A DNA stretch of 47,254 nucleotides, from the NCBI GenBank assembly GCA_021323995.1, contig JAJPJY010000091.1, forward strand, positions 1 to 47,254, given 5' to 3'. The position numbers were made by a program, and so were the translations under genes. This document shows positions 8,153-23,645 of this stretch, one piece after another; within the stretch, counting starts at the first letter, position 1; the number at the start of each line of letters is the position of its first letter. The stretch comes from a bacterium. Lineage in GTDB: Archaea > Thermoproteota > Bathyarchaeia > 40CM-2-53-6. Under the pieces are notes generated by a model. It was not told where the DNA came from and ran no database searches. It saw only the letters and a list, made by a program, of their open reading frames with translations.

Positions 8153-8172
8153 ACCAAAGGTAAATTCTGACT
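8153..8172. repeat. candidate attL (direct repeat copy 1): ACCAAAGGTAAATTCTGACT
   Basis: Matches 23694-23713 (ACCAAAGGTAAATATTGACT) at 18 of 20 positions, with a 13-nt exact core. Confidence 0.55.
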
Positions 8173-8319
8173 GAGGTTTTGACGGGAACTTATTGTTGGC
8201 ATGAAAAAGATGATCGCGGACCCGATTTATAGGTGAACCTCGAAGATTTCCCGAAAATGATACCTCGAAAGGACTAAACAGCTAAATAACCGGCGAGCTT
8301 AACAAACATCCATACCGTG

Positions 8320-8362
8320 CCCACCGCGAGGATAGTATTTAATTCGCAATATACGCGGTGGG
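8320..8362 (+). promoter_or_regulatory. TATA-like box (TATTTAAT, 8336-8343) flanked by a perfect 9-bp inverted repeat (CCCACCGCG / CGCGGTGGG)
   Basis: The arms are at 8320-8328 and 8354-8362 with a 25-nt AT-rich spacer. The element is centred ~47 nt upstream of the GTG start of the NYN gene. Confidence 0.35.
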
Positions 8363-8386
8363 GTATCCTAACCCCAGTGAACAAGA

Positions 8387-8959
8387 GTGGCCAAGACTGC
8401 GATCCTTGTTGACAATGCGTACTTGGAAAAAGCCGCTATTCTCTACAATGCTTATCCAGTCGATATGACCAAGCTTCCCCAAGTAGTCCTCGCCAAGGAT
8501 GACGAGCACTTCAAGACATATGTCTTCGATGCCCTACCATACCTTCCAAAAGAAAACGCCACGCCAGATCAAAAGGAGAAGCATGCAAAGAAGTCGAGAT
8601 ACCTTGATGCTCTACAGTACAAGGAGCGGCTTACTGTCGAACAGGGACATGTCACAGGAAAGGGAAGGCAGTGTCCTAAGTGTGGAACGAAGACGCTAGT
8701 ACCGGTCCAGAAAGGAGTGGATGTTCGAATTGCAGTCAGGATGGGGTCCTTGGCGCGGGGTGGAATGGAAAAGATCGCTCTAATTGCCGGGGACGCAGAT
8801 TTGGTTCCTGCGGTCGAAGATGTGGGGGTGACAAATACGATAGTCAAACTCGTCTATGCAAGAGTGCATGAGGTAAACACGAGTCCTCGACTAATCATGG
8901 CATGTCCCGAGAAGCATCAATTGACCCCCCAGGATTTGCAGTTCCTGAAGCTAACATAG
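8387..8959 (+). CDS. NYN/LabA-like (DUF88) domain protein with an inserted zinc ribbon
   Basis: 190 aa with a GTG start. TAILVDNAYL, KGVDVRIAVRM and IALIAGDADLVPAVE are the acidic NYN/LabA motifs. CPKCGTKTL sits between motifs. Confidence 0.72.
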   Translation: MAKTAILVDNAYLEKAAILYNAYPVDMTKLPQVVLAKDDEHFKTYVFDALPYLPKENATPDQKEKHAKKSRYLDALQYKERLTVEQGHVTGKGRQCPKCGTKTLVPVQKGVDVRIAVRMGSLARGGMEKIALIAGDADLVPAVEDVGVTNTIVKLVYARVHEVNTSPRLIMACPEKHQLTPQDLQFLKLT

Positions 8960-9007
8960 ATCGGGTACAGTCGATATTTCTCTAAGACGCGACAGCCCCT
9001 TCCTGTC

Positions 9008-9382
9008 TTGCCACCTGAGATTTGTGTGCAAGTCCTTCTCGACCGCGACAGACGGAGAAGACTTGAGCGATTTACCAAGATGCACGAAGTCGAAACCATT
9101 CTTAAGAATGCGGCCAAGAATCGCAATCTGATAGATCGTCGTGGACTCGAACAAGTCCTGTCCCATCTCGTGAACCAAGATGTGTGGGCAAGGCATGAGA
9201 AAGGAGAAACTCTCAAAGAAATAGCCGAAGACTATGGAGTCACATTTCAAGCGATTTGGTGGAGAGTTTGTAGATGGCAGGAGGCTCTCTATATCAAGGA
9301 ATATTCTGAGGAACCACCTCCGGAAAGCTTCTACGGACCAACCGAGAAAATGGTCCGGCGGATCAAGGACATGGGACCTTGA
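9008..9382 (+). CDS. small helix-turn-helix protein (alternative ATG start at 9083)
   Basis: ETLKEIAEDYGVTFQAIWWRVCRW resembles a sigma-r4/resolvase-type HTH. The stop overlaps the next start (TTGA). Confidence 0.42.
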   Translation: MPPEICVQVLLDRDRRRRLERFTKMHEVETILKNAAKNRNLIDRRGLEQVLSHLVNQDVWARHEKGETLKEIAEDYGVTFQAIWWRVCRWQEALYIKEYSEEPPPESFYGPTEKMVRRIKDMGP

Positions 9383-10218
9383 TCGACCTCCAACGCTGGA
9401 CACTCGAACAATTCTGTCGAAGGCATGAGATAGATGTAGCAGAGATAGACAGCACGCTCACCTACAGTGAAAACATCAAGCATCTCTGGGATGTTGTCGG
9501 ACGACCCCTCGATTCCGTCAATCCTGGAACAGAGACTTCAGCCAAAGCAGACCTAATGAGTCGAGTAGTATGGGAAGGCCATGCTACCATCTACTGGCAA
9601 TTACTGAAGGACTTGACCGAGATCATCAAGGGTCGCCGGGCTAATGATGTCCAGACCCGTCATCAGATTGGGGTTCGAATCAACTACGCGAGAGCTCAAA
9701 TCTTCGAAGGTGGAGAATTTTCCGATGAGCATGGTTGGAGCGGTGCTTTGGGCGTTATGATGGAAACCCTCGCTAAGAAGCTGGATGTTGGAGTCAGCAC
9801 GCTTTACCAGTCAGCGGATTTTGCTCAAAGGTTCCCGGATTGGGATGGGTTCGCGAGTGCGAAGTTCGAGGTTCCGGGGAAGAAGCGATTCAAGACCGGA
9901 GGTCATGATATAATCATAAAGTCCGGAAACGACCTGAAATGGACAACAGTCCTCCGGCATGTCCTATATCCGGGCAAGAGACCCCCAGAAGCGCCTCCTG
10001 TCAATCCCGTCTGCTGGTATGATGAAAGCGGGCTCTGGGATTGGGTAGATTCTGGATGCGAAGGTGAGGTGAAGACTCGCACGATCAAGATGTGCGAAGA
10101 GCATTGGGAGGAATTCAATATCTGGAAGGAGCTACGAGAGATGAAAGGGCCCCCCTACGCTCCTCCGCCTGACTGGTTCAAACACTCCGAAACGAGACAA
10201 ACGAAGATCGAAGGTTGA
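9379..10218 (+). CDS. hypothetical protein (possible internal HTH: LAKKLDVGVSTLYQSADFAQRF)
   Basis: 279-aa ORF translationally coupled to the upstream gene. No enzyme motif was recognised. Confidence 0.5.
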   Translation: MIDLQRWTLEQFCRRHEIDVAEIDSTLTYSENIKHLWDVVGRPLDSVNPGTETSAKADLMSRVVWEGHATIYWQLLKDLTEIIKGRRANDVQTRHQIGVRINYARAQIFEGGEFSDEHGWSGALGVMMETLAKKLDVGVSTLYQSADFAQRFPDWDGFASAKFEVPGKKRFKTGGHDIIIKSGNDLKWTTVLRHVLYPGKRPPEAPPVNPVCWYDESGLWDWVDSGCEGEVKTRTIKMCEEHWEEFNIWKELREMKGPPYAPPPDWFKHSETRQTKIEG

Positions 10219-10587
10219 CCGAACAAGTAACTCCAGATTTGCTTTGAGGGAAACAACCCTCGATTGACCCGAACACATCAAAATCGACCAATCTTTCACT
10301 CTTCAGATATCGGCGGGTGATGGACAAACATCTCAAGATCGACTTTCAGAATCACGAAAAAATCCCCGATGCGATTAGTAATGCTACCGAATATTTTTCT
10401 CACTTGTGCGTTCGTCGCCAGATATCTACGGGTAGCGTACTAACATCTTTGGATTGAAAGTCACTCCGGGTGCCTATAAAGAATGCCCGCCCTATCTCTT
10501 AGAGACGAAATGATCTCAACACCAGATGTCTATTGCGAAGTTTGCAAAGGGGAACATCATCCCCCAGCTTGCCGGAGGTGAGTTAGT

Positions 10588-10794
10588 ATGGTATGTGAGC
10601 ATAAGGAAATCGTTCTTCGAAGTCTCCAGCGGCGCTATCCAGATCGCTACTACGAATATGACCCCGAATCCAAGCAGTACATTTTCCAAAATGAAGCATA
10701 CGATGACGACCACGAGCAAATCTGGTTGTGCACTGAATGCGATGCGGAGCTGAAGGCAGACGATATTGTCGTAGATAGCAACAGCGACTATTGA
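10588..10794 (+). CDS. small acidic cysteine-containing protein
   Basis: 68 aa. It is preceded by GGAGGTGA 6 nt upstream of the ATG and contains LCTECDAE. Confidence 0.45.
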   Translation: MVCEHKEIVLRSLQRRYPDRYYEYDPESKQYIFQNEAYDDDHEQIWLCTECDAELKADDIVVDSNSDY

Positions 10795-10891
10795 CCCTTA
10801 GCAGAGGTTGAGAATAGGTGATATCTGGCGATAGTTTTAGACTGCCGATCATAGGATATGGTAGAGAGATACCTCCCTTAACTGCCTCTCT

Positions 10892-11491
10892 ATGCTTGGT
10901 AGGGTTCTCTATAGTCAACCTCGGGGCGGAGTGCTAAAGTTGGTTGCGCCTCTTCCCCGAGGGCGGCGGGAGCGGAATAAGCAGTTAGGCGACTTTCTGG
11001 AAGATGTAACCGAGTACGCTCTGTGGGCTCTTAGAGGCATTGAGATCGTCATTCAGCATGAGCGGTTCCGAGACCCAGACCCAACAGTGCAGGAGCATTC
11101 CCACTATCCTTTGTCAAAACTGATGCCAGATTTCCGTATCATTCTTCGGGACCTAACCTTTGTCGAGGCGGAGAACAAGAACCTCAACACCCACCAAGAC
11201 TCCGCGTGGATAGAGGAAAATATTCTGAACAAGAGTTGGAGCCCGAATAGTCGGCGGGTCATAATCACTCCCAAACTATCGAATCTCAACATGCCCGCGA
11301 GAAAGCTGTTATCTGAGTACCATATAATCGAAACCGTCGAACAGGTTCAATCTTCCGACGATATCGAGGCGATAAAGCTCCTCATCCGAAACCTCGGAGA
11401 CTTGTTCAAAGGAATCATGGTATACAATCGACAAGGGCACATCTTACCGCCTAAGGTTCTGCCTTTCGGAAATCAGCCTTGGAGGCGGTAA
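10892..11491 (+). CDS. hypothetical protein
   Basis: 199-aa ORF in the co-directional gene train. No motif was recognised. Confidence 0.42.
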   Translation: MLGRVLYSQPRGGVLKLVAPLPRGRRERNKQLGDFLEDVTEYALWALRGIEIVIQHERFRDPDPTVQEHSHYPLSKLMPDFRIILRDLTFVEAENKNLNTHQDSAWIEENILNKSWSPNSRRVIITPKLSNLNMPARKLLSEYHIIETVEQVQSSDDIEAIKLLIRNLGDLFKGIMVYNRQGHILPPKVLPFGNQPWRR

Positions 11492-11505
11492 AGCGGTAAT
11501 GACCA

Positions 11506-12261
11506 GTGACCGAAACAGCCCAACCTCCCGCTGACGATCTCAGCGGAGAAGATAATCAGATTCAGCCCAAATGCGGCTGTCAAAGGATAGAACTTGCTCC
11601 GGGAGTTATCCAGAAGGTACTATGCCCGCTTCACCAGCTTCTAAAGGCCAAGAAAGATGCCCGCGAGATTCGGAGAATCTACCACAGGGTCGAGGAACGA
11701 AGCGCTTACCAGCTTAGAAAGACCGACATACCAAAAACCGAACAAGAAGTCGAAACCAGCCAGCGAGAAAGTGCAGGCGGGGAAGAGAAGTCGAGTCTCG
11801 GTCGCATAAGGGATGATGGGCTCGATAGAGTGGTTCAAGTTGTCCAGAAAGACGCTACTGAGGAATCTCAAGAACAAGGTCTCTCAGAAGGTGTCCGGGA
11901 TGCTTATGGTCGAGAATTAGTACCAACCGGGAGCGAGGTAGGGCAATCTTCCAGTGCGGGAGACGCTCAAAGGAAGGAGTCTTCGTTCATACGAGCACAG
12001 ATGAAACTCGGTAAAAAGCTGAAGCTGGATAAGAGTAAGCTAACTATCGGTCTCAAGCGATGCGAGGCCGTCGAGGAAAACGGTACTAACTGCCCCGACC
12101 TCTTAGAAGGAGTCAGTATCCGAGAATCTACCTTGTTAGACGGTCGGAAAGCGTACCTTTGTCGTCGCCACCGATATCTGCTCAACCTTGAGTTGAACCG
12201 TCGCCGACGGAAGAAAGGACGGTATACGGCGATAATATCGGGACAGAAACCACCTAACTGA
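11506..12261 (+). CDS. hypothetical protein with cysteine clusters and an acidic/disordered centre
   Basis: 251 aa with CGCQ...LCPLH at the N-terminus and CPDL...LCRRHRY plus a basic tail at the C-terminus. Confidence 0.45.
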   Translation: MTETAQPPADDLSGEDNQIQPKCGCQRIELAPGVIQKVLCPLHQLLKAKKDAREIRRIYHRVEERSAYQLRKTDIPKTEQEVETSQRESAGGEEKSSLGRIRDDGLDRVVQVVQKDATEESQEQGLSEGVRDAYGRELVPTGSEVGQSSSAGDAQRKESSFIRAQMKLGKKLKLDKSKLTIGLKRCEAVEENGTNCPDLLEGVSIRESTLLDGRKAYLCRRHRYLLNLELNRRRRKKGRYTAIISGQKPPN

Positions 12262-12313
12262 TGCCATAGTACCGCCTTGACGACGGAGCCCCCTATAGTG
12301 AGAGCGAGAGAAC

Positions 12314-12584
12314 ATGGATAAGCTCGAAAAAGCATTCTTGACAAAGTGCGACCAGTTTGTGGAAGAGAATACCCGCTACCTGAAGGAACATGGTATCGAA
12401 CTGCTCGCCTCAAGTGAGATTATTTCGGACGGAAAACGGTTCATGGTATACCGGGAAGGACCTCGTAACCGAACTCTTACGCCTATGTAAGAGCATATCG
12501 GAGCTTGTCGAAGAGCGACAGCGAGAAGCGGATCTTTCCGACTGGGTCGCTAATCTCTCCAAGAACTCATACTACATCAAGTGA
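12314..12584 (+). pseudogene. two overlapping short ORFs (12314..12490 and 12390..12584) that read as one ~90-aa helical protein if one base is skipped near 12453-12458
   Basis: Frame A reads MDKLEKAFLTKCDQFVEENTRYLKEHGIELLASSEIISDGKRFMVYREG and then degenerates (PRNRTLTPM*). Frame B becomes protein-like exactly there (KDLVTELLRLCKSISELVEERQREADLSDWVANLSK...). The junction lies in cGGGAAGGa. Confidence 0.3.
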
Positions 12585-12588
12585 TTTT

Positions 12589-12789
12589 ATGCCACTTCAT
12601 CCAGCAGTGAAAGAATACCTTAGTCGCCCTCATCCGCCCCAAGCAAATTCCGATACTGGGGCTGGAATGACCGCCGCCGTCGTTGAGCGGTTTTGGGCCA
12701 ATCAAGATCAAATTCAGAAGCGCGTCGAAAAATCCTCGACCCGCCATGAAACAACCGACGCGGTTCCAACCGCAGGTAGTCAAGAATGA
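12589..12789 (+). CDS. small hypothetical protein (66 aa from ATG 12589)
   Basis: The ORF track lists 12505..12789. The ATG at 12589 follows the upstream stop by 4 nt, and the stop overlaps the next ATG (ATGA). Confidence 0.35.
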   Translation: MPLHPAVKEYLSRPHPPQANSDTGAGMTAAVVERFWANQDQIQKRVEKSSTRHETTDAVPTAGSQE

Positions 12790-13364
12790 CAGACGCATTT
12801 GAAACATTCGTAGGAGGCGTGCTCGGTAAACGAGCAACGAAAGTCCTCCGATACCCACAAGATTATCCCAGCACCATTGTTAGGATATTTCTTCAAGACA
12901 ATCCGCCCGATAGCGCGGAAATGAACTTCCTTAGAGAACACTTCGAGGAAGCTCGAAAGAACCCAGAGATACGCCGCCTCATCCAGCGAAATAACGAGAC
13001 CCGCGATCCTGAGGAATATTTTGCAGGACTTGAACGAGTTTTCAAGGCCGAAAAGTCTCAGATAGGGGTTATAGCAGAGCGACCAGAGATCAACCCCAAG
13101 TTCTCATTCAGACAAGATGTCCAGAGGTACCCGTGTGGTCACGAGACTACAGGTCGAGTCTATCAACCGTATCGACAGGATGGAAAGACTTTCGTTCAAT
13201 GTCCGCTCGATGGGAAGGAATGGGAAGTCAAAATTATTCTGGGTAAGCAAGTCAAAGATTCGCCGACCCTAAGCTCACCTTCCGATAACGCGCTCAATGA
13301 CAAGGAACTATTGGCTCACGGTGGCCAATGGGATGCCGGACACGAAAGAAAGGAGAAGAAATAA
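12786..13364 (+). CDS. hypothetical protein
   Basis: 192 aa, translationally coupled on both sides, with a YPCGHE...VQCPLDG cysteine/histidine cluster. Confidence 0.48.
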   Translation: MTDAFETFVGGVLGKRATKVLRYPQDYPSTIVRIFLQDNPPDSAEMNFLREHFEEARKNPEIRRLIQRNNETRDPEEYFAGLERVFKAEKSQIGVIAERPEINPKFSFRQDVQRYPCGHETTGRVYQPYRQDGKTFVQCPLDGKEWEVKIILGKQVKDSPTLSSPSDNALNDKELLAHGGQWDAGHERKEKK

Positions 13365-13366
13365 CC

Positions 13367-14575
13367 ATGGGAATCCTACAGAAAGCAGTCAACAAACAGT
13401 TCTCGAAAACCTCTCTTCCTACCTTGGATAAATCTGAGGCGGCAGAGATGAACACGATAGCAGATATTCTATCCAACCCGACCCTAACACCGGTCCAGAA
13501 GGCGGACTTACTCTCTAAGATGAGTACCTTCGTTCGCGGCAAGAACTCTAAGGTTCTCGCTGATTGTTTCAAATGCGAACAGCCGGATACTGGGCAATCA
13601 ACCGAGACTGATCAAGCGACGAATTTGTTCCCCGCAACCGGTTTAGGCTCTCAAGGTCCGAGTGGTCAAGGTCAACCGGGTTCTCAGATTACTTCAAGGC
13701 GCATGACAACCGTCCGCGAGGAATCATACTTACCGGTCCAAAATCCTCAGGCAGGCGGGCAAGTTTCAGCAGAGCAAGGACAGTTACAGCCCCCGCCCCA
13801 AACGGCGGCTGGACGATCTGCCCTCGCCCAGCGTCAAGCTATGAAGCCCCGAGAGGATGAAGATAACGCCAATCCCGAGTTTCAGTATGATGGTCAAACT
13901 AATCCCCCGGCCCGCATAGCGGCAACTCCCGGTCAGAGTGGTTCCAGCCAAGTATATCGGGATAGAGAAATAGCTCACAGGCGGCTCAAGGCGAGAGAAC
14001 ATCCAGCTCTCATTCCGCTAAAACATCGTTCTGAGGAGTTCGGTCATTCCGCGTCTATCGGTTTCCGAAAATCGTTCATGACCTCCACGAGTGGCGACAG
14101 CTATCGAGTCGATAGCATCTACAAAGGCTCAGACGGCAAATCGTGGTACTTAGAAGGAATCGCAAGCGACGGGTTGGTCGATCTCGAAAATGATCGCATG
14201 ACACCTAATGCGCTCAAAGCGATGGAGGAAGCACTCAATCGCGGTGTGAATGTCTTCGTAGACCACGATCATACAGTTAGCAATCTAATCGGAACGACCG
14301 TGAAAGGTGAGCTTAGGGGTAATCAGCTCAGAGCAGTAGTCAAACTCGAAGACCCGGATTACAATCCATTAGTTAGATCGATTCTTTCAAAGGTCGATGC
14401 GGGAGCCCGTCTTGGGTTCTCGATTGGCGGCGACTTGACAGAGAGCCGCCCCGGATGGGACGGGTCTAAATCAGTTCGCGATATCGACGGCGTAAATCTC
14501 ATGGAGCTAAGCGTCGTGGGATTACCCGCAAACCCCAGATCATTCGTGACTGGGTCTTCCTACAAGGGAGCATAA
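13367..14575 (+). CDS. HK97-family prohead (head-maturation) serine protease domain (S78/U35-like) fused to a ~230-aa Q/G/P-rich N-terminal region
   Basis: The C-terminal ~170 aa read WYLEGIASDGLVDLENDRMTPNALKAM...VFVDHDHTVSNLIGT...LGFSIGG...LMELSVVGLPANPRSFV. These match the His, Ser and E-x-S-x-V-x-x-P-A-N blocks of prohead proteases. I chose the ATG at 13367, 2 nt after the upstream stop. Confidence 0.7.
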   Translation: MGILQKAVNKQFSKTSLPTLDKSEAAEMNTIADILSNPTLTPVQKADLLSKMSTFVRGKNSKVLADCFKCEQPDTGQSTETDQATNLFPATGLGSQGPSGQGQPGSQITSRRMTTVREESYLPVQNPQAGGQVSAEQGQLQPPPQTAAGRSALAQRQAMKPREDEDNANPEFQYDGQTNPPARIAATPGQSGSSQVYRDREIAHRRLKAREHPALIPLKHRSEEFGHSASIGFRKSFMTSTSGDSYRVDSIYKGSDGKSWYLEGIASDGLVDLENDRMTPNALKAMEEALNRGVNVFVDHDHTVSNLIGTTVKGELRGNQLRAVVKLEDPDYNPLVRSILSKVDAGARLGFSIGGDLTESRPGWDGSKSVRDIDGVNLMELSVVGLPANPRSFVTGSSYKGA

Positions 14576-14580
14576 GAAAC

Positions 14581-15813
14581 ATGTCAACACAAGAAGACTA
14601 TCAAGCGATGCAAGCCCTACACGAATTAGTTTATGGGCTCGCTAAAAGAAACATCAAAAGTGCCGCGGACTTTTCCGCGTTCACGAAAGAATTCGACTCT
14701 ATTGTCAGTCAGGTTTTCCAGCCCCAAGGTGGGAGCGAAAATTTTACCAATCTGAGAACTCCTGGAACTGGTCCTGGCAAGGTCCCTGCCTCGCCGGGTC
14801 ATAGCGGCGACTACGATAAGCCTGCAAAGCCTATCGACGGACCGAACAAATCCGCTTGGGATAAGACTGGATTCTACGATTCCTCCGGTGAGAAAACTGG
14901 TTCAGGTTATGTGACTGAGGAAGGTCGCGAGCGATATGGAAGTACTGCGGCTGGTGGAACAGGTGAAAGTGTCGCCAGAACCGGAACTGGTTACTCTAAC
15001 CCTTACCATCCACAGGAAGGAACTGACAAGTATCCGAGCAAGACTGGTTTCACATCTGACCCTACGATTAGAGCAGGTCCCGGAGAGTCAGGCAACTACG
15101 GCGAATCTGCTAAGATCATAACATCTCAGAGCCCCACTCAAACTGGCATTCCTACCTACGGTCCCAACCAGTCCGCAAGTCTCGCACGGAAATCGAGATA
15201 CACCGCTTCAGAAGCTGTCCACGCTATTCCGATGCCCGACGGTACTCTCCCAGGAACAGAAGCGACTCGCTACCAGTATAAGGAAAAGTCAGCATCCCTA
15301 TTCCCGACCTCACAAGAGTCGATTGATACCAAAGGGGCAATCAGTTCCAACACGGCTCAAGGTGAATTATGGCAAGCTCGGAAAGCTTTCTTCGAAAAAG
15401 ACGAGTCGGCTGGTAAGAACGCCACTGCTTTAGTTAAGTCGATGACTCGAGTAGCTTTTCGTGGAACAGGTGACGATAGCCCTGTCGCGCTTGAACGGCT
15501 ACGAAAATCAATACTAATGGAGGAAGAAATGGAGGAGACTGAAGAAATCGGTTCTCCTGCCGCCTCACAAGCCGCTCACGACTTGCTTCTACCCAAAAAG
15601 GAAGAGGAGGAAGATGAGTCAAGGAAGCTTGAGGAAGCCGCTAAGAGTGCTGACAGCAACGCTTCCAGATTCGAAACCATGGCAAAGGATGTAACCGTAG
15701 ACTTTACCGATAGGGCGAGGGCGACCGAATACGCCAAGAACTATCGCCAGACCGCTATGAAACTCCGACGCAAAGCTCGGAGATTCGGTGTAGGGAAATC
15801 TGATATTATCTAA
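14581..15813 (+). CDS. low-complexity G/T/S/P/Y-rich protein with an acidic and coiled-coil C-terminus (scaffold-like?)
   Basis: 410 aa. It carries repeated (K/R)TG(F/S/T)-type motifs (DKTGFYDSSGEKTGSGY, ARTGTGYSNPY, SKTGFTSDP), then EEEMEETEE...KKEEEEDESRKLEEAAK. It lies immediately downstream of the protease. Confidence 0.5.
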   Translation: MSTQEDYQAMQALHELVYGLAKRNIKSAADFSAFTKEFDSIVSQVFQPQGGSENFTNLRTPGTGPGKVPASPGHSGDYDKPAKPIDGPNKSAWDKTGFYDSSGEKTGSGYVTEEGRERYGSTAAGGTGESVARTGTGYSNPYHPQEGTDKYPSKTGFTSDPTIRAGPGESGNYGESAKIITSQSPTQTGIPTYGPNQSASLARKSRYTASEAVHAIPMPDGTLPGTEATRYQYKEKSASLFPTSQESIDTKGAISSNTAQGELWQARKAFFEKDESAGKNATALVKSMTRVAFRGTGDDSPVALERLRKSILMEEEMEETEEIGSPAASQAAHDLLLPKKEEEEDESRKLEEAAKSADSNASRFETMAKDVTVDFTDRARATEYAKNYRQTAMKLRRKARRFGVGKSDII

Positions 15814-15816
15814 GCG

Positions 15817-16176
15817 ATGTCCCGAATAACCATCCTCGCGGCGATAGTCAAGAATAAGATGGTTACCGAGGTACTATCGAGAAGCGATAACCCGAAGTGC
15901 CCGGTAAAAGAATGCCAAGGCAAGATCGTGGAGTTAGAGGCGGAACCGACTGACCTCGGGCAACATCAGTTCGAGTGCTTCAAGTGCCACAAGTTATTCT
16001 TTGGAATGTCCGCTGAATCGGTCTCCAAGAATATCAAAGTCTCCGGTAGAGAGTTATCGATGTGGCGGGTTCGAGTCAAGTCTCAAGGCTACAAGGGATT
16101 CGACCGCCTGAAACTCACTACTGATGAAACCCGGATGGTTCAAGAGATCAAAGCCGGAAGGGCTTTCTTAGCATAG
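15817..16176 (+). CDS. zinc-ribbon protein
   Basis: 119 aa with CPVKECQG...FECFKCHK. Confidence 0.48.
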   Translation: MSRITILAAIVKNKMVTEVLSRSDNPKCPVKECQGKIVELEAEPTDLGQHQFECFKCHKLFFGMSAESVSKNIKVSGRELSMWRVRVKSQGYKGFDRLKLTTDETRMVQEIKAGRAFLA

Positions 16177-16455
16177 ATAGAGTCACGGGAATCTTTCGGT
16201 AGTAATGCCGAGAGTCGGTTTTCAGCTATTTGCTTCCCGAGTTCGCTTCCCGAGACACACATGTCTATCCCTCCAAGAAGACAAACCGACAGCTCAGAGC
16301 CGGGTTGTAGCTCCGAGCATCTTCCTAATAGCCCGTTAACCAGAGCAACGGTTTAGCTTTCACCGGCCTTCCCAGGAAAGATCGCTCGATGCTTATCCGT
16401 CGAGTGCTGGGTTTTGCGATGAAGGTTTCGGGCTTAATCGTTATGTTGTGAAAAA

Positions 16456-16704
16456 ATGGTAACTTCAGGTGCATTAGGCGACTATCCGCAACCGAAACGC
16501 GGGATAGATCCCAAAGAGGCGGCAGAATATCGACCTCCAGAATATTCCACCCCCGCGGAGTATTATGCTCTAAGGCGGAAGCTCGAAGAAGAAACTCATC
16601 CATGCGCGGAATGTAAGAAGCCGTGCCGGATCAAGTTCGATAAGTGTTATGATTGCTCAGGAGGAAGGAAACGGTTTGGGTCATCGTCGAAGTTTCGCAA
16701 GTAG
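16456..16704 (+). CDS. small zinc-binding protein
   Basis: 82 aa with CAECKKPCRIKFDKCYDCSGG. Confidence 0.4.
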   Translation: MVTSGALGDYPQPKRGIDPKEAAEYRPPEYSTPAEYYALRRKLEEETHPCAECKKPCRIKFDKCYDCSGGRKRFGSSSKFRK

Positions 16705-16870
16705 AATATCCAACCAGATTGAATGGGGCGACAATCGAGAAGTTACTGTTTGCCGAAAGTGTGGCAGGATAACTTACTCAACTAATGCGAGGATTTGCTG
16801 GTACTGCTATTCCGGTGCTCGCGCACCAGAGACATACCACGATCCGAAGACTCTCAGAGTGCTTCCATAA
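16649..16870 (+). CDS. small zinc-ribbon protein (true start uncertain; the 5' part overlaps the previous ORF)
   Basis: Contains VCRKCGR...ICWYCYSG. The stop overlaps the ATG of a 33-codon mini-ORF (16870..16971, TAATG), which in turn overlaps the next gene (ATGA). Confidence 0.35.
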   Translation: MIAQEEGNGLGHRRSFASRISNQIEWGDNREVTVCRKCGRITYSTNARICWYCYSGARAPETYHDPKTLRVLP

Positions 16871-16967
16871 TGACTGAGCTGACCAAGAAGATTTGGCGAT
16901 ATTATCCCTCTACTGAGCGACTGGTAATACGAGAGCCGAAACGATCTAAGAATGGACGGTTCACCAA

Positions 16968-17273
16968 ATGAGCTACGCTTATTCCTATCTTCCTACGGGT
17001 CAAGATAAGCTACCGCCTCGAAGTTATCATAAGTGGAATATGGATGTCAAGCTACCTCAAGGCGGTCAGTGGATTAACCCAGAAGTACCAACTCAATTCG
17101 TTGTCGAGAAATGTACCGATTGCGGTCTTAGGATAGTATTCTGCCTCGGTCAAAACGAACAGTACTTCTTCCCAAATAACTCAAAGTGCTCAATGTCTTA
17201 CTCCTCGAGGAAATCTTTGGTGCCAAGGCTGAAGAATCGTCGAAGTCGGAAGTTAGAGGAGATGTACCGCTAA
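16968..17273 (+). CDS. small hypothetical cysteine-containing protein
   Basis: 101 aa with KCTDCGLRIVFC and a basic C-terminus. Confidence 0.4.
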   Translation: MSYAYSYLPTGQDKLPPRSYHKWNMDVKLPQGGQWINPEVPTQFVVEKCTDCGLRIVFCLGQNEQYFFPNNSKCSMSYSSRKSLVPRLKNRRSRKLEEMYR

Positions 17274-17296
17274 TCCCGATAGCGCACGATGTACTG

Positions 17297-17554
17297 ATGC
17301 ACCAAGATAATCAGAGAGAGCTAATCGAGCGCAAGGTCAATACGATCTATCAGCCGGTTGAATGGAACCCACAAGCGCATCCGAGAAAGGAATACAAGCC
17401 CACTTCAGGTAAGTTCAAGGAAGACGATTCGTTTACCCGAGAGCAAGCGCAGTTAGGTGGTATAGCGCGGTGGGCAAATCGTCAAAGATCCGCAGAGGAA
17501 ATGAAAGGCTATCTGTCTCGAAAAGCCCGCCGAGACCGCAAGAAAGGCAAGTAG
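17297..17554 (+). CDS. small basic hypothetical protein
   Basis: The ORF track lists 17186..17554. The ATG at 17297 avoids an 88-nt overlap with the previous gene. The tail is lysine/arginine-rich (RKARRDRKKGK). Confidence 0.38.
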   Translation: MHQDNQRELIERKVNTIYQPVEWNPQAHPRKEYKPTSGKFKEDDSFTREQAQLGGIARWANRQRSAEEMKGYLSRKARRDRKKGK

Positions 17555-17816
17555 TGATAGAGAGTAATCTAAAGAGCAATCTACGAGGCTACATGCCGGA
17601 TAAGATATCTAACCTCGTATTCGCTCCATCGTAGCCCCTAAGAGTTCGTCAAATGCTCTACCGTTGCCTTAGAGAGATATGTGGGCTGATTCTCGGGCCT
17701 ATCAAGCGGGCTTCGTTTCAATATGATGATTTAGACTGACTGAGCTGGTACGATTTTAGTGGGGTTTCAGGAGTCCCAGATTCCTTCGGTGGAATCCTCT
17801 CCCTCTCCGGACGGAT

Positions 17817-18206
17817 TTGGAGACTGTATCGTACAATCTACTTGGAAGCGAGACTTTGATCAATCAAGCACTCATTCAATGGGCAGAGAACAAGTACAAA
17901 GTCAAATCCCCCAGAATAATTTACTCAAGACACTTTCCTCTTCCTGGGGCGGACTCTGCTTACTGTTCAGGAGAAGGAGAGACCCCCAGTCATGAACCGG
18001 TTATTATGATCTGGAAGGGCGCACAGAATCCAGAGTTCCTATACTTGCACGAGCTTCAACATCATATCAGACGGGAGCTTGAGAAAAGAGAAAGTCCTGA
18101 TTTGAAGGAAAGGTGGGCCGATTACTTGGCGAAATGCGACTTGGTCGAATATCACTTTCGCGAGCAATTAGCCGACCTCAAGCCTCTCGTTTCTGTCTTG
18201 GGCTGA
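17817..18206 (+). CDS. small HExxH zinc-metallopeptidase-motif protein (SprT/WLM-like?)
   Basis: 129 aa with a TTG start. It reads PVIMIWKGAQNPEFLYLHELQHHIRRE, a hydrophobic strand followed by HELQH. Confidence 0.45.
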   Translation: METVSYNLLGSETLINQALIQWAENKYKVKSPRIIYSRHFPLPGADSAYCSGEGETPSHEPVIMIWKGAQNPEFLYLHELQHHIRRELEKRESPDLKERWADYLAKCDLVEYHFREQLADLKPLVSVLG

Positions 18207-18803
18207 GTAGATCCAGTTTGACCTAAGTCTAAGGACCCCCTTTCTTAGTATCGACGCGGTTATGGTTCTTCGCGATTGACCTTTGCGGCCACTGAAAGAC
18301 CAATCGTCATCGTCAAGTTCCGCGCTGAGGACCTCATCGATCTGTGTCGGAAAACGATCTTCTACTGGTTGCGTCTCCATATCAATCCGATAAACAAAGA
18401 CCACCAACCAGCCCTTTTCGGGATTATGCCCTTGCCAACCTCCTCTCTGTTTGGATGCTTTGACCTCCAAACCTTGACCACGCAAGACTTGATCACTTGG
18501 ATACTTGCCCTTTGGTATTAGGTCCGGGTATCCTCCAATCTTTCTGTTGCGTGTTAGTTGCACTGAATGGTCAGCCAGGTTCTTGACGATAATTTCGCTT
18601 AGGAATCCAGCAAACGCGTTGCCTAACATCATTTCTTCGAGCCGTGGCTGTCCCTTACTCACGAGGAAAGAGTTCATTCCGTATAGAAGATCGTGAGTCG
18701 CCTCAATCGTCAGCCTGACATTGTCTATCGTCAGACTATGAGGCAACACCGCTCTTGGATTGAATGAACCTCTGACTGTGGCCTTTTCGATGTACTTTGG
18801 CAA
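18168..18803 (-). CDS. putative type II restriction endonuclease (PD-(D/E)XK fold)
   Basis: 211 aa. GGYPDLIP...GQGLEVKASKQ gives a PD...(E)VK catalytic arrangement. It is divergent from, and 92 nt away from, a DNA methyltransferase. Confidence 0.55.
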   Translation of the reverse strand: MPKYIEKATVRGSFNPRAVLPHSLTIDNVRLTIEATHDLLYGMNSFLVSKGQPRLEEMMLGNAFAGFLSEIIVKNLADHSVQLTRNRKIGGYPDLIPKGKYPSDQVLRGQGLEVKASKQRGGWQGHNPEKGWLVVFVYRIDMETQPVEDRFPTQIDEVLSAELDDDDWSFSGRKGQSRRTITASILRKGVLRLRSNWIYSAQDRNERLEVG

Positions 18804-18895
18804 TCAGTTTGGCGGACAAATCCGACACTTTTAAGGAGAGCGGACCTCAGAGATAATTCGATGCCGTCTTGCGCGGATCAAGTTGAGGGGAGATT

Positions 18896-19849
18896 ATGAC
18901 ATTCGACCTCTACTTGGCTGACTGCATGGAATGGCTGAAACATTCTCCAAAAAATTCCTTTCACGCTGTCATCACCGACCCCCCTTATGGCATGGTCGAG
19001 TATAGCGAAAAGGAGTTGAAGAAGCTCAAGAAGGGTCGCGGAGGAATCTGGCGCATTCCTCCCTCCATTGGAGGGAGCCAACGGAAACCGCTTCCCCGAT
19101 TCACTGTCCTCTCAAAGGATGAAATTGCTGATCTGAGGATGTTCTTTCAAGAATGGGGCGACACGCTCTGCCCGACTTTGGTTCCAGGTGCGCATGTGTT
19201 CATTGCGTCGAACCCGTTGTTGCTAAGCACAATCTCTTCCGCGATGATCGAGGCAGACTTCGAGTTTCGTGGAATAGTTGTGCGCCTCGTTCGGACTTTG
19301 AAAGGAGGCTTCAGACCTAAATTGGCGGAAGAAGAATTCAAGGAAGTCTCGTCAATGCCGCGTTCCGGATGGGAACCTTGGGCCATTTTGCGAAAACCCT
19401 TCTCGGGGCGACTGTCTGAAAACCTAAAGAAATGGGGAACTGGCGGTCTCAGAAGAAACCCAGACGGGAATCCGTTCACTGATGTAATATTGAGTACAAG
19501 GACCCCTCAGGAAGAACGAAGAATCGCTCCTCATCCATCGCTAAAGCCTCAAAGTCTTATGCGACGGTTAGTCTGGGCCGCTCTCCCTCTTGGTAAAGGG
19601 AAAATCTTAGATCCTTTCTGCGGTGCGGGTTCAACTTTAGCCGCGGCTGAGGCAATCGGATACGATAGTGTTGGACTCGAAATCTACCCAGAATATTTCG
19701 AGATAGCACGAAAGGCGATTCCTCGCCTTGCCGCGTTGAGAGTTGATCAATGGCAAGCTTCCAAAATTCCAATGAGTAGATCAGTCACTAAGGTGCATCC
19801 TGCTCAAGTGAGTTTGAGAGAAATCATCCAACCCGTTCCCGCTTCCTGA
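18896..19849 (+). CDS. DNA methyltransferase, beta-class N6-adenine/N4-cytosine (N6_N4_Mtase family)
   Basis: 317 aa. Motif IV VITDPPYGM is near the N-terminus and motif I ILDPFCGAGSTLAAAE near the C-terminus. HPSLKPQSLMRRLV is typical of this family. Confidence 0.9.
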   Translation: MTFDLYLADCMEWLKHSPKNSFHAVITDPPYGMVEYSEKELKKLKKGRGGIWRIPPSIGGSQRKPLPRFTVLSKDEIADLRMFFQEWGDTLCPTLVPGAHVFIASNPLLLSTISSAMIEADFEFRGIVVRLVRTLKGGFRPKLAEEEFKEVSSMPRSGWEPWAILRKPFSGRLSENLKKWGTGGLRRNPDGNPFTDVILSTRTPQEERRIAPHPSLKPQSLMRRLVWAALPLGKGKILDPFCGAGSTLAAAEAIGYDSVGLEIYPEYFEIARKAIPRLAALRVDQWQASKIPMSRSVTKVHPAQVSLREIIQPVPAS

Positions 19850-19855
19850 TCGCGA

Positions 19856-20176
19856 ATGGCAGACCAATTCGAATGCAGAATTTCCAAACATCAGATTAGT
19901 TCAGGATGCCTCTACATACCGACGCGAGTTCGTCCGGTCTTCCCAAAAGGGTATGATAAAGCAGAGATTCATGTAATTTTCGACGACGAGGAAGAACCCC
20001 GGTCTCTTACCTACGACCCCTACAATCACATAGTTTGGGGTCTTAGAAACTGGCACAACTCACATGGGGCGAAGATTGGAGACTTGGTAATAGTCGAACC
20101 CCTTGCCAAGGATTCCGTTCCTCCCAGCTATAGGTTCAGATTCGAGAAACAGACAAAGGTCCCGTTGCCTGGCTGA
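19856..20176 (+). CDS. small protein with a B3-like/pseudobarrel DNA-binding pattern (tentative)
   Basis: 106 aa. It reads CLYIPTRVRPVFPKG..AEIHVIFDDEEEPRSLTY......VWGLRNWHNSHGAKIGDLVIVEP. The pattern iP..a..fP, a v.l.d stretch, an aromatic-G and GD.v.f resembles EcoRII-N/BfiI-C/B3 domains. It starts 6 nt after the MTase stop. Confidence 0.35.
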   Translation: MADQFECRISKHQISSGCLYIPTRVRPVFPKGYDKAEIHVIFDDEEEPRSLTYDPYNHIVWGLRNWHNSHGAKIGDLVIVEPLAKDSVPPSYRFRFEKQTKVPLPG

Positions 20177-20266
20177 AAGATTCGCTGAGCACCAAGAGTT
20201 GCCGGGCATTTACTGGTTTCGAATTACACTCCACCTTAATAGCTTCAGACGACTTCGCTCAAGCAC

Positions 20267-21205
20267 ATGGCGAGGCCCATCTTCCGTTGCCCGTTATGCA
20301 AATCGATAATTTCCAAGGGCGTCTTTGATCGAGTAACCGGCATTCTGGAGGAGCGAAAGCGACTTGAGAAAAGACTTCGAGACGAAGCAAAGTCTGCAAT
20401 CGAGAAGGGAAAGGCATCAGAACGAAGCCGGGCTAATCGTCTTGCTGGCATGCTTGAGTCTAAGACCGATAAGATTCGGGCCTTAATGAAAACCGTAGGA
20501 GACTTAAGAGATCAACTTCGTAAAGGAACAACTCCTCAAGTTGAAGGTCTCAACTTAGAAGAAGACCTCGCTCAAGAGTTGCGAGGTAGGTTCCGGGGCG
20601 ATAGAGTTCAGCGCTTCGGCAAGAAAGGTGACATTCTTCAAACCATAATGTATCGGAAGCAGGTCGCGGGGGTCATTCTTTACGAGTGCAAGAGAACCCA
20701 ACGATTCTCTCGCAAATATGTTGCTCAAACCAAACGCGCAATGGTAAAGCAAAGCGCAACATACGGCGTTCTGGTGACGACATCATTTCCGAGGGATTCT
20801 GCTGGCTTCACCGTATCTGAGGATATTTTCGTCATTCATCCGTTCGGGGCTTGTGACCTCGCGGAGTTCTTGAGAAAAGGGCTAATCGAGCTTCAATCTC
20901 TAAGGATAACTGGGGAAGAAACGAATCAACGGGGTAGAGTGTTATTGGATTACGCACGATCTGAGGACTTCAGAAACGCGATTCAAGATTCCATCCATTC
21001 GACCCATGCTCTCCGTGATTTGTTAGCGTCAGAGGTTCGGTCTCATTATCTGATGTGGAAGAAGCGGATCGATCACTATCGAGGGATCAACAATAACATA
21101 ATCCTGGTAGGTGAAAACGCCCGTCGTGTGGTCAGAGGAGAACCCCTAATCAAGCGAATCGACCAAACTCAAGTCCTCGCGCCGGTAAAGGAGCTACCGG
21201 CATGA
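20267..21205 (+). CDS. DUF2130-like protein: N-terminal zinc knuckle, coiled coil, C-terminal PD-(D/E)XK-like domain
   Basis: 312 aa. It has FRCPLCKSII, then a long charged helix, then GDILQTI...GVILYECKRTQRFSRKYVAQTKRAMVKQSATYGVLVTTSFP (D...ExK followed by a helix), as I recall for DUF2130. Confidence 0.5.
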   Translation: MARPIFRCPLCKSIISKGVFDRVTGILEERKRLEKRLRDEAKSAIEKGKASERSRANRLAGMLESKTDKIRALMKTVGDLRDQLRKGTTPQVEGLNLEEDLAQELRGRFRGDRVQRFGKKGDILQTIMYRKQVAGVILYECKRTQRFSRKYVAQTKRAMVKQSATYGVLVTTSFPRDSAGFTVSEDIFVIHPFGACDLAEFLRKGLIELQSLRITGEETNQRGRVLLDYARSEDFRNAIQDSIHSTHALRDLLASEVRSHYLMWKKRIDHYRGINNNIILVGENARRVVRGEPLIKRIDQTQVLAPVKELPA

Positions 21206-21506
21206 TTTCTCCTATCCGAAGCTGGAGCTTCATCGACTAGGATGCTGTCGGCTTAGATGCCGACGATCTAAATCTTAGAGATTTTCGAGGATTCCGCGTG
21301 AACCAAATCCGCGTTTTGAGGCTGATTTGGACTCAAAACTACTCCTGTTCGAAACACAGGCTCTGATCTGGAAGATATTCTTATTAGAGAATCTAAGGGA
21401 ATGACCGATTGAGCAACACAGCGGAGATCATCTCCGGGGGCGGCCGGCGTAGGCCGTCTCAAATGAAGCCGCTAGTGCCGGATTACTCCGAGTATTTTTG
21501 CCTCGG

Positions 21507-22118
21507 TCATTCCTTGTCTGAGTCCTCCGGCTCTACCGTCGGGCCCATGACTCTGACTCCTCCTTTTCCCACTTTTGCAAAGGCAACATAATAGCCCCAG
21601 CCTCGGTCCGTCTTTACCCGGCTCACTTCTCCGGCTCTTACGAGATTGGTAAGGGCTCCCGAAATATCCGTGGACTGAACATATATTCCGCTGACCTGAA
21701 GCGCGTCCACAATCTCCTTTATGGTTCGAGGACTGTGAGCCCAGCCTGAGACAAGGAGCTGTTTCACTGCCTCAGCCTTGGACTTTGGGTTGACGATCCG
21801 AGGTACTTCCTCGGTGGGCTGAAGGAATTCCTCGTCGCTCATCGGTCTCGGTTTTCCTGCCGGAGAGAATGTCTTCCGGAACTTTTCGGTGTATGAGTCG
21901 ATATTGTTGAAAGCCTCGGCTACTTCCTTCTGCGTACCTTGAATCTCGACCTCGATATCCCCTATCTTGAGCCGGACTTTCAGCGACAAGGATGCTGTGG
22001 CCTTAGCGCCCGGCCTTATATTCTTTAGGGTCACAGGGGCCACCGCGCGACTTTTAGCGAAATCAGCTCTAACAGCCTGTCCGGGGCCTGTTTTCAGGTT
22101 ATTTTCTGATAGTGACAT
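21507..22118 (-). CDS. hypothetical protein with a C-terminal winged-helix domain
   Basis: 203 aa. SPRTIKEIVDALQVSGIYVQSTDISGALTNLVRAGEVSRVKTDRGWGYYVA looks like an HTH plus wing. It is co-oriented with, and downstream of, the integrase. Confidence 0.48.
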   Translation of the reverse strand: MSLSENNLKTGPGQAVRADFAKSRAVAPVTLKNIRPGAKATASLSLKVRLKIGDIEVEIQGTQKEVAEAFNNIDSYTEKFRKTFSPAGKPRPMSDEEFLQPTEEVPRIVNPKSKAEAVKQLLVSGWAHSPRTIKEIVDALQVSGIYVQSTDISGALTNLVRAGEVSRVKTDRGWGYYVAFAKVGKGGVRVMGPTVEPEDSDKE

Positions 22119-22187
22119 TTAGCACGAGTGTTATCGCTTATGCAGTTGATACATACGCATACAGCTTCCTCGTCGATGAAGGTCCGT

Positions 22188-23645
22188 CTATGGATGGGAG
22201 AAACCTTTCCGCATTATGATTGTTCCGTTTATCCGGCCCTTTTCCTCGAACCCGTCTGCGATAGCCTGTGCGTAAGCTTCGACATCATCATCCGGGACTT
22301 TCCTGATTTCGTGCTTGTTCCCGTTTCCATTGGTTGAAGCTACTTCGACAGCCAACATAACTCTCTCCTCATGATTGAGCATCTGTAGATGATCGTAGTG
22401 CCCCTTTCCTTCAGCGGCGTATTCCGCTGTCTGAGCGGCCTTCAATCTCGCCATGATCTCTTGGAATAGGTCCTTGTGATTCTTGTAGAGATCGTTCAGC
22501 ATTCGGTTATGCGCTTCTTCCTCTGAGATATGTAGCTGGATTGCGAGAGTCGCAGCGAGCCGACAACATTCTCTCTCCCCACTAACTTTTTCCTCTCCTT
22601 TACCAGTCCGCAGATTCAGTATTGGTCTAAGTCGGGATAGTTGACGAATGATTAGCTCTCGACCATCCCGCGTCTTGTGGAAGCGATTGTATTCCAGCGG
22701 GTCGATCTTGTGGCCCAGACTGAACTCCGCTATAGTTGGGGAGACTTCATGGATTTCGCAGAGGGTCCTGAAGAAATCTCTCCCGAGTTCGTGGGGACGG
22801 ATTCTGTAGCTCAGCTTTCCCGGCTCTTTACTTTCGAGACCCGACCTATCAGCCAGATGTCGGATGAACGACTGAACCACAGCATCCGAAATCGGCTCAC
22901 CAGTTTGATTCACAAATAACGGGTCTTTATCGTGGAGGGGACGCTGAAGCTCCCGTTCCCGTTCTTGAATGAGCGTCCTCAAATCCTCGACGCAATCATC
23001 CCAGAGCAGAACGAAGTATGTGATTCCGGTCTTATGCCGAGTGACGGAGACTTCGACCGGAACGGTCTTGGCCTTGATCTTTTCGCGATACTTGCTCCAA
23101 TCATGCGCGAACTGTAACCATTCCGATATTCCAAACCCAACTATCAGGCTGGAAATTATTGCTCTGTCTCTCGTTGTCCGGCAGGCATTGTAGAGTTGTT
23201 TGACTTCATCGACCGAGAGGGGTAGGCGTTCTTCTCGTTCGCGGGCCTCTGCAACTAACTGGTCTCGATCCGCTAATGTGATGGAGTAGCTTTGAACATC
23301 ACCTAACTGATTTTCCAAGAAGCTTCTGACAGCAGAAGCGATCACATTCCGGGTGTCGCTGGTGAGATGGCGTTTGGTCCGGGTAGAGATATACTGATGG
23401 AGGAATGTTTCAAGATCAGTACCCCAAGATCGTCGGGTTTTGACATCTTCGGCTCTCTGAGATTCCTTGACGAATTCAAGCCACTTAGGAATCGAGGCGA
23501 ACCGGCGGGACAACCAATGTCGCCAGTAAACGCTCAGGCTCTGTAGATACAGTCCGGCAGTGGCTTTTGACTTCAGAGCGACCTTGGAATGCCATTCTAA
23601 AACAGCAGGTATCTCAAGCAGAGCGGCGACCACAGGTCGGCTCAC
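22188..23645 (-). CDS. tyrosine recombinase/integrase with a ~150-aa C-terminal extension
   Basis: 485 aa. Candidate catalytic residues are R (TTRDRAIISSL), K (VTRHKTG), H..R (RPHELGRDFF), H (SLGHKI) and Y (LEYNRF), in the canonical order. It lies at the edge of the island next to the right repeat. Confidence 0.78.
   Translation of the reverse strand: MSRPVVAALLEIPAVLEWHSKVALKSKATAGLYLQSLSVYWRHWLSRRFASIPKWLEFVKESQRAEDVKTRRSWGTDLETFLHQYISTRTKRHLTSDTRNVIASAVRSFLENQLGDVQSYSITLADRDQLVAEAREREERLPLSVDEVKQLYNACRTTRDRAIISSLIVGFGISEWLQFAHDWSKYREKIKAKTVPVEVSVTRHKTGITYFVLLWDDCVEDLRTLIQERERELQRPLHDKDPLFVNQTGEPISDAVVQSFIRHLADRSGLESKEPGKLSYRIRPHELGRDFFRTLCEIHEVSPTIAEFSLGHKIDPLEYNRFHKTRDGRELIIRQLSRLRPILNLRTGKGEEKVSGERECCRLAATLAIQLHISEEEAHNRMLNDLYKNHKDLFQEIMARLKAAQTAEYAAEGKGHYDHLQMLNHEERVMLAVEVASTNGNGNKHEIRKVPDDDVEAYAQAIADGFEEKGRINGTIIMRKGFSHP

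Follow-up and report, generated by a model that had tools for sequence, protein, structure and literature searches.

A prohead protease and a scaffolding-type protein without a capsid gene in an integrated element of a soil Bathyarchaeia genome: a candidate satellite of head-tailed archaeal viruses

Proteases of the peptidase S78 family that take part in capsid maturation are encoded in the head module of viruses, between the portal and the capsid genes. What such a gene is doing where no capsid gene follows it is the question raised by contig JAJPJY010000091.1 of assembly GCA_021323995.1, which is from a soil member of the Bathyarchaeia (the serine-tRNA ligase shares 71-74% identity with those of Bathyarchaeia metagenome-assembled genomes, MAGs). 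The stretch of this contig that was analysed, referred to here as the window, is 47,254 nucleotides in length, and it contains an integrated element in which a prohead protease gene (13367-14575) is followed by a gene for a long and partly disordered protein of 410 amino acids (aa; 14581-15813). A preliminary description of this DNA had reported prohead-protease blocks, a Q/G/P/S-rich arm, TG motifs and a charged tail in these two genes, and the coordinates and sequence features of both are as described there. Of the explanations that it offered, the one favoured by the evidence presented below is that of a satellite-like element which has kept part of a head module.

The first gene of the pair (13367-14575, forward strand) encodes a protein of 402 aa in which the blocks VFVDHDH, GFSIGG and ELSVVGLPANP are all found. 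Its start at 13367 is supported by the presence of GGAG upstream of the ATG and by the homologous protease of a related contig (L003), which begins at the same point. The region comprising aa 275-395 matches Pfam PF04586 (Peptidase_S78) with an E value of 9.2e-8 and 32.8 bits (cut-off 21), a match to phrog_80 ("head maturation protease") has an E value of 2.4e-15, and the S78 domain as a whole extends over aa ~250-395. The N-terminal ~230 aa consist of Q, G, P and S to 35%, and in an AlphaFold2 (AF2) model based upon an input alignment of seven sequences, 197 of the first 249 residues (1-5, 12-22, 54-103, 105-144 and 159-249) have a predicted local distance difference test (pLDDT) score below 50. 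This disordered arm carries the motif RIAATPGQSGSSQVY at aa 181-195, with PGxSG from aa 188. The C-terminal domain was modelled with moderate confidence (ten-residue block means of pLDDT 64-84 for aa 251-380), and its best Foldseek match was the T4 gp21 prohead protease (5jbl; E 8e-5, probability 1.0, template modelling score 0.55-0.59), followed by herpesvirus assemblins, viz. the proteases of human cytomegalovirus, Epstein-Barr virus and Kaposi's sarcoma-associated herpesvirus. Sequence searches of the PDB with the protease, whether single or profile, gave no match, and fold comparison alone succeeded. The residues His300 and His302 (VDHDH) and Ser352 (GFSIGG) are invariant in seven element and virus sequences, and from their position in the motifs His300 and Ser352 are the predicted catalytic pair. 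As both of them are invariant, the suggestion that substituted catalytic residues might mark a decayed remnant fails. The gene at 13367-14575 is thus a true HK97/S78-type prohead protease with the assemblin fold, to which a disordered N-terminal half has been fused.

The second gene (14581-15813, forward strand) encodes a protein for which no family match was found in Pfam or PHROGs. It is comprised of a hairpin and a motif (aa 1-76), a disordered G/T/S/P/Y-rich part (~50-225; these amino acids account for 55% of residues 47-225) and an acidic/basic helical part (226-404), and its final 110 aa contain 22% D/E and 19% K/R. Four (K/R)TG(F/S/T) motifs are present (at aa 95, 105, 133 and 154), as are two PGxSGxY motifs (at aa 72 and 167). 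In the AF2 model of this protein, whose input alignment contained 59 sequences, the N-terminal hairpin is formed by helices 3-24 and 28-46 (pLDDT 83-96), residues 80-214 mostly have a pLDDT below 50, ~175 residues in all are disordered, and several helices are found in the C-terminal part, the last two of which are long (326-370 and 375-404; pLDDT 78-90). The model has eight helices and no strands, and Foldseek searches with it recovered generic helical hairpins only, at E 0.75 or worse, with no capsid among the matches. Because it lacks strands and has no Foldseek match better than E 0.75, the protein as modelled is neither an HK97-fold nor a jelly-roll capsid protein, and in this regard the judgement made earlier by eye, that it is not an HK97-fold capsid protein, is borne out. 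Elongated, alpha-helical, partly disordered and without a globular beta fold, the model has the general character of an internal scaffold.

Word-based searches with single proteins from the window recovered merely 2-3 relatives (three for the 410-aa protein). A profile of those three, when searched against 1.84 billion representative proteins, detected 61 relatives of the 410-aa protein, each of them a cluster at 50% identity. What these have in common lies in the first ~75 residues and consists of a helical hairpin followed by a conserved disordered motif, QPKGGxENxTNxxSPGxxxGKxxAxPGxSG, the consensus of the core being KEFDxxLxQVFQPKGGTENFTNLRSPGQPPGKIxAxPGxSG. In the proteins from viruses, which we will refer to as A-type, the motif is followed by SGSSxVFRTDTG...GxGYQ; the window protein and most of the other relatives (B-type) have the motif near the N-terminus, then a G/T/S/P-rich middle part and an acidic, coiled-coil-like C-terminus. 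Two relatives (P0019 and P0029) are fusions, in which an N-terminal S78 protease and a long linker precede the scaffold core. In all five virus contigs (L011, L012, L016, L018 and L110), the core-bearing gene is located immediately 5' of a capsid gene of the PF17236/phrog_25898 family, and the related virus protein either follows the protease gene or is fused to the protease. Because relatives in five of five virus contigs directly precede an SU10-type HK97 capsid gene, the protein encoded by 14581-15813 is, as judged from its homologues, of the scaffolding type. It is hence no orphan, being a relative of the protein that occupies the scaffold slot of head-tailed viruses, which goes beyond what had been seen in it before.

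One of these contigs, L018, is 30.2 kb long and represents an incomplete virus genome. A portal gene (PF04860, 44.7 bits, cut-off 39.1) is located upstream in it, and further on are found, in this order, an S78 protease, a 103-aa open reading frame (ORF), the core-bearing protein and the SU10-type capsid gene (PF17236, 27.3 bits, cut-off 24.1; phrog_25898, E 1.6e-15). The protease of L018 thus sits between portal and capsid genes, whereas that of the window does not. The protease domain of the window is 46-47% identical to the proteases of L018 and L012, and the scaffold core is 47% identical to that of L018 over 75 aa, with no further alignment. The two genes have their closest informative relatives in a group of head-tailed viruses whose capsid proteins are of the SU10-type HK97 kind, namely in the protease and in the scaffold-slot protein of that group. 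The capsid proteins of three of the viruses (L018:11664-12746, L012:2437-3519 and L016:2001-3080) are 75-86% identical to each other, and their scaffold-slot proteins were observed to diverge greatly outside the core. A further motif, SMRPGGxQGY, is shared by the C-terminal tail of the L018 virus protease (L018:8837-9592), by L003:1081-2424 and by the tail of a 697-aa protein on contig C155 of the window genome (discussed below), and it is a candidate procapsid-targeting signal. No confirmed relative was found among the IMG/VR viral contigs, and a scan of Joint Genome Institute (JGI) metagenomes yielded two short contigs.

In a tree based upon the scaffold core, A-type and B-type sequences interleave, and at least four switches between them are forced by well-supported branches. 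As the alignment is short (74 columns), only such branches are to be trusted. One of them, with 98/97 support, unites sequences from the capsid-adjacent virus setting (P0025 and P0029) with those from capsid-less elements (P0016, P0060, P0034 and P0012), the gene context having been verified for all six. A tree of the proteases gave no resolution, the branches of the elements being long. A virus and an element were in two cases found in one dataset: the element L019 and the virus L018 are from one JGI sample, their sole similarity being the 84-aa core (70% identity), and the element L027 and the virus L110 are from one NCBI assembly.

The element that carries the two genes extends from 8153 to 23713. 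It is bounded by a 20-nt direct repeat, of which the left copy (candidate attL, 8153-8172; ACCAAAGGTAAATTCTGACT) has the host VIT1 gene on one side and the first gene of the element on the other, and the right copy (candidate attR, 23694-23713) matches it at 18 of 20 positions; the spacing of the repeats is 15,541 bp. A tyrosine integrase of 485 aa is encoded next to the right end (22188-23645, reverse strand; PF00589, 33.6 bits, cut-off 27.1; phrog_1 integrase). When the flanks were joined in silico, they gave a contiguous 71%-identical alignment in the congener G289, and VIT1 and Elf1 are adjacent in the congeners G191 and G140, where the site is empty. For these reasons the 15,541-bp integrase-bearing stretch is a true insertion in a Bathyarchaeia chromosome. 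It is larger than the stretch of 9008-17554 considered in the preliminary description, and its further genes include those for the integrase, a DUF2130 protein and a methyltransferase accompanied by a candidate restriction nuclease.

The absence of capsid, portal, terminase and replication genes, which had been noted by eye, was upheld by several kinds of searches. Scans of the element ORFs against Pfam and PHROGs detected no capsid, portal, terminase, tail or replication family, and no Walker-A motif is present in the open frames of at least 60 aa between 8150 and 23720. A tblastn search of the whole 2.0-Mb assembly with all proteins of the L018 virus matched nothing except the protease and scaffold genes of the window element and of contig C155, and PF05065 is likewise absent from the assembly.

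The window element is not an isolated case, and belongs to a conserved family of capsid-less elements. At least ten related neighbourhoods with the same capsid-less layout were identified on eleven contigs, which are from soil metagenomes and from this genome; the family consists of the window element, C155, L003 and L005 (one element type on two contigs), L004, L013, L017, L019, L026, a 15.4-kb JGI contig, L027 and L028. A capsid gene or a weak capsid match was found in none of the ten B-type neighbourhoods, in contrast to five of five for the A-type. The elements have in common an integrase family of 480-524 aa, with the window integrase being 36-42% identical to those of L003, L004, L017 and L019, and a second disordered protein with the motif GQPPAKIxxxPGxSGSSGV(F/Y), which is encoded by a gene of its own in L004, L017, L019 and L026 and is fused to the protease in the window, L003, L005, L027 and C155. 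The flanks of L017 and L019 are 70-83% identical to the window genome, and as the genes flanking L017 are 534 bp apart in that genome and 16,104 bp apart in L017, the insertion in the latter is of ~15.6 kb. The sizes of the two elements thus nearly coincide (15,541 bp and ~15.6 kb), with element proteins being at most 50% identical. The 61 clusters of the scaffold family are without a Pfam or PHROG model, and if the satellite reading given below is right, they form a family that is missed by current detectors of capsids, scaffolds and satellites.

A second capsid-less element, different from that of the window and located outside it, is present in the same genome (C155:42982-55168). It encodes an integrase of 464 aa that is not of the window integrase family, a 697-aa protein in which the protease is joined to a HAD-like part and a disordered tail carrying KIAAEPGMSGSSEVFRTDTG, a B-type scaffold of 360 aa, and homologues of the 192-aa and possibly of the 199-aa ORFs of the window. 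Compared with the window, its protease and scaffold genes have changed places. In L026, the protease (234-1199; 321 aa) was observed to bear the hairpin of the scaffold core (EETEEAVGAMRSAVTELADKHFG...FKADFEFLLQQV) N-terminal to its S78 domain, without the QPKGG motif, so that the family has seen several kinds of shuffling between the pieces of protease and scaffold. Two small beta-rich ORFs (~90-113 aa) were also observed after the scaffold gene in sister elements (L003:3628-4256, L005:4214-4758, L028:3222-3889 and L026:2701-2976); they are absent from the window, and when those of L003 were compared with the 103-aa ORF that separates protease and scaffold in L018, no similarity was found.

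The reading that we favour, with somewhat better than even confidence, is that the window element is a satellite which puts its own scaffold and protease into the procapsid of a helper virus, much as is the case for CpmB of the Staphylococcus aureus pathogenicity islands (SaPIs). On this account, a helper virus of the L018-type group would infect the cell, and the scaffold-type protein of the element would enter the assembling helper procapsid through the ~75-residue region of hairpin and motif which it shares with the helper scaffold. The conserved core motif could have as its partner the capsid protein, the protease active site or the portal. The C-terminal helical region of the element protein, unlike that of the helper, would then alter assembly, the most likely outcome being a smaller shell that could hold ~15.6 kb and from which the helper genome would be excluded. 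The element protease, whose disordered arm has the same PGxSGSS motif, would enter by means of that arm, and it would remove the scaffold, so that DNA could be packaged by the helper portal and terminase; portal, terminase and tail would all be supplied by the helper. That the motifs match those of viruses speaks for a module which still functions in the context of capsid assembly. Like known satellites, the element is an integrated mobile element with an integrase of its own and defined ends, and it combines an incomplete virion module with genes that would act on the morphogenesis of a helper.

The two genes may be compared with several known systems. Tailed phages possess S78 proteases of the HK97 gp4 type, and in some of them the protease and scaffold genes are fused, as in P2 gpO and lambda C/Nu3. 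The protease family and the fold are the same in the window, and the relatives P0019 and P0029 are fusions that adjoin a capsid gene; in the window, however, the protease domain is C-terminal to a disordered arm, and the scaffold has a gene to itself, after which no capsid gene comes. The element most resembles, by analogy, the scaffold competition of the SaPI type, in which CpmB and the 80alpha scaffold compete for one site of the capsid protein, with small capsids as the result (Dearborn et al., 2017, PMC5644958). SaPI1, with CpmA and CpmB, is similarly an integrase-bearing island of ~15 kb without a capsid gene, and CpmB is likewise an alpha-helical, internal scaffold-like protein with a short region in common with the helper scaffold. 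The window element differs in that its host is an archaeon, it carries a prohead protease of its own, it has no TerS-like gene and it is known from sequence alone; in addition, the common region is an N-terminal hairpin with a disordered motif rather than a C-terminal helix, in a protein that has 410 aa and is largely disordered. The capsid-forming phage-inducible chromosomal islands are also satellites with head-morphogenesis genes, a protease included, but they encode the whole capsid (capsid protein, portal, connectors and packaging genes) and steal only tails (bioRxiv 10.1101/2022.09.08.507074), whereas the window element has only the protease and scaffold and lacks a capsid and portal of its own. 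In the pairs of P4 Sid with P2 (PMC7552001) and of PLE TcaP with ICP1 (PMC10945586), a satellite protein shrinks the helper capsid, but these proteins work from the exterior of the shell and have no relationship to the helper scaffold, in contrast to the window protein, which is an internal-scaffold homologue. Among the archaeal satellites described to date, pSSVx/pSSVi and the haloarchaeal SRCEs descend from plasmids and exploit spindle-shaped viruses (bioRxiv 10.1101/2025.02.15.638363). The putative Asgard NMV2S, which is small and circular, is linked to a head-tailed virus and has replication-type genes (bioRxiv 10.64898/2026.08.12.739948). These have in common with the window element an incomplete morphogenetic module and a presumed dependence upon a helper, but no protease or scaffold of the HK97 system is among the genes that their papers list.

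A number of observations weigh against a satellite of this kind. Three members of the family (L004, L017 and L019) are without a protease, which is thus not essential to the lifestyle. The redirection of capsid size is pure analogy, and the part in common with the virus scaffold is the N-terminal core and not, as in CpmB, the C-terminal capsid-binding helix. No small terminase was found in the element, and blastn comparisons between virus and element contigs revealed no common non-coding stretch that might be a pac or cos site. In the sole sequencing run that contains the element, a soil metagenome, the element has the same depth as its flanks and no excision joints were found. The co-occurrence of viruses and elements in two datasets is weak, suggestive evidence, and no helper has been tied to the window host. 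Head-tailed viruses of Bathyarchaeia are known (PMC10848311). A provirus with a matching capsid is absent from this assembly and from ~20 congeners, and as searches of 401 Bathyarchaeia-class genomes with S78, scaffold-core and capsid profiles gave almost nothing beyond the window genome, no helper provirus was found. A distant relative of the matching capsid is present in only one of the 401, the MAG G189 (C193, L008/L109), where it stands beside an S78 protease and is 24-26% identical to the capsid proteins of L016, L012 and L018. In another MAG of this class, G271 (C1, L007), a portal gene precedes a fusion of protease and scaffold of 602 aa. The regions in G189 and G271 are pieces of head-tailed proviruses, and as regards the host, the capsid relative of G189 with its S78 protease also counts in favour of the satellite reading.

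Several other genes of the element are also conserved within the family. A 192-aa zinc-ribbon protein (12786-13364, forward strand) forms a phmmer group with proteins of L003 and L005 and with L017_9022, L019_5953, L026_1_231 and L028_33_794, and the alignment of this family also takes in a 173-aa protein of C155. In the capsid-less elements its genes are always located directly upstream of the protease/scaffold genes; the protein has no family match in Pfam or PHROGs, and we would guess at an accessory role in packaging or assembly. A 119-aa zinc-ribbon protein (15817-16176, forward strand) is 42% identical to L003_4352_4726 and groups by phmmer with L017_11672 and L026_2978, members of this family being found directly 3' of the scaffold gene in several elements. 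Two smaller ORFs, both on the forward strand, are kept in sister elements: one of 94 aa (12505-12789) is found in L003 and L005 (BLASTP, 47% identity to L003_321_527, E 2e-16), and a Cys-rich one of 101 aa (16968-17273) is shared with L003 (BLASTP, 44% identity over 55 aa, E 4e-15). A PD-(D/E)xK-like pattern (PDFWV...LLECKN) that was seen by eye in a 184-aa ORF of C155 (54614-55168) suggests a nuclease, and the 199-aa ORF of the window (10892-11491) perhaps has a similar one; BLAST at E 1e-4 detected no link between the two. Lastly, a 67-aa two-helix hydrophobic ORF (10516-10719, reverse strand) was considered as a capsid protein of the spindle-virus type and rejected, as it is antisense to a small zinc-ribbon ORF (10588-10794) and is conserved neither in the sister elements nor elsewhere in the genome; it is probably spurious.

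The alternative that survives best is an island which interferes with viruses, spreading only by means of its integrase or vertically, whose decoy scaffold and protease poison the assembly of virus procapsids and which is itself never packaged. The virus-matched motifs fit this equally well, the cargo is of a defence type (the methyltransferase with its candidate nuclease, and the DUF2130 protein), a TIR gene is noted in a sister element, and no packaging gene or signal was found in the element. However, a near-constant size (15.5 and ~15.6 kb) in elements whose proteins are at most 50% identical would be expected from a limit on capsid capacity instead, the rare and patchy distribution of the elements among congeners suggests horizontal spread, and in bacteria interference and piracy usually coincide. 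We regard a purely interfering island as unlikely.

We consider it still less probable, and indeed rather doubtful, that the element is an autonomous small virus of an unfamiliar kind, with a shell made from an unrecognised protein (the 410-aa protein or the small ORFs) that is matured by the protease. Most ORFs of the element are without a family assignment, unique capsid proteins are frequent in archaeal viruses, and the small beta-rich ORFs that follow the scaffold gene in L003, L005 and L028 could be thought of in this context, but these ORFs are absent from the window. Further, the 410-aa protein has no strands and is homologous to a protein of the internal scaffold slot and not of the shell, the element has no ATPase, and it has no conserved hydrophobic or membrane protein, the sole two-helix candidate being the antisense and unconserved ORF mentioned above. 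The only upstream ORF of at least 250 aa that is large enough for the HK97 fold (279 aa) has only weak matches to PHROGs of the helix-turn-helix or transcription-repressor type. With the protease and the 410-aa protein as the proteins for which structures were modelled, the proposal of a divergent small virus with hidden capsid genes, made in the preliminary description, finds no support and is improbable.

That the element is the decaying remnant of a head-tailed provirus, from which the capsid, portal, terminase and tail genes have been deleted, is very improbable: the protease and scaffold genes are clearly of head-tailed virus origin, but the same compact layout, with every frame intact, is met with again in ten or more neighbourhoods whose proteins are as little as 25-50% identical, neither the integrase nor the repeat at either end is damaged, the predicted catalytic residues are retained, element-specific gene families flank the pair and the element sizes are uniform. 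Equally little credence is given to an exapted protease that acts upon a disordered substrate in a cellular or element process other than capsid assembly, such as regulated peptide release or a condensate, for although the protease and the substrate-like disordered proteins are adjacent and sometimes fused, and the disordered neighbour is indeed a likely substrate as had been supposed, the motifs track those of co-occurring viruses, which points to a capsid-assembly setting and is hard to explain without a common viral partner.

Capsid-pirating satellites are well studied in bacteria. In the literature, no paper was found on the elements described here or on this scaffold family, no report of a capsid-pirating satellite for head-tailed archaeal viruses, and none of a satellite design that has a scaffold and a protease without a capsid gene. 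It seems to us an evenly balanced proposition that these elements are the first reported satellite family of head-tailed archaeal viruses, and the first in any domain with an internal-scaffold mimic and its own protease but no shell gene, in which the motifs QPKGGxEN..SPG..GK..A.PGxSG, PGxSGSSxVF and SMRPGGxQGY, repeatedly exchanged or co-evolving with helper lineages, serve as a ticket to the procapsid. If the satellite reading is true, capsid piracy by means of scaffold competition would have arisen in archaea too, and conserved short motifs may mark proteins for entry into the procapsid; samples with both a virus and an element supply matched sequences of the two. The finding would also bear upon the spread of mobile defence genes, those for restriction-modification among them, between the uncultured archaea of soils.

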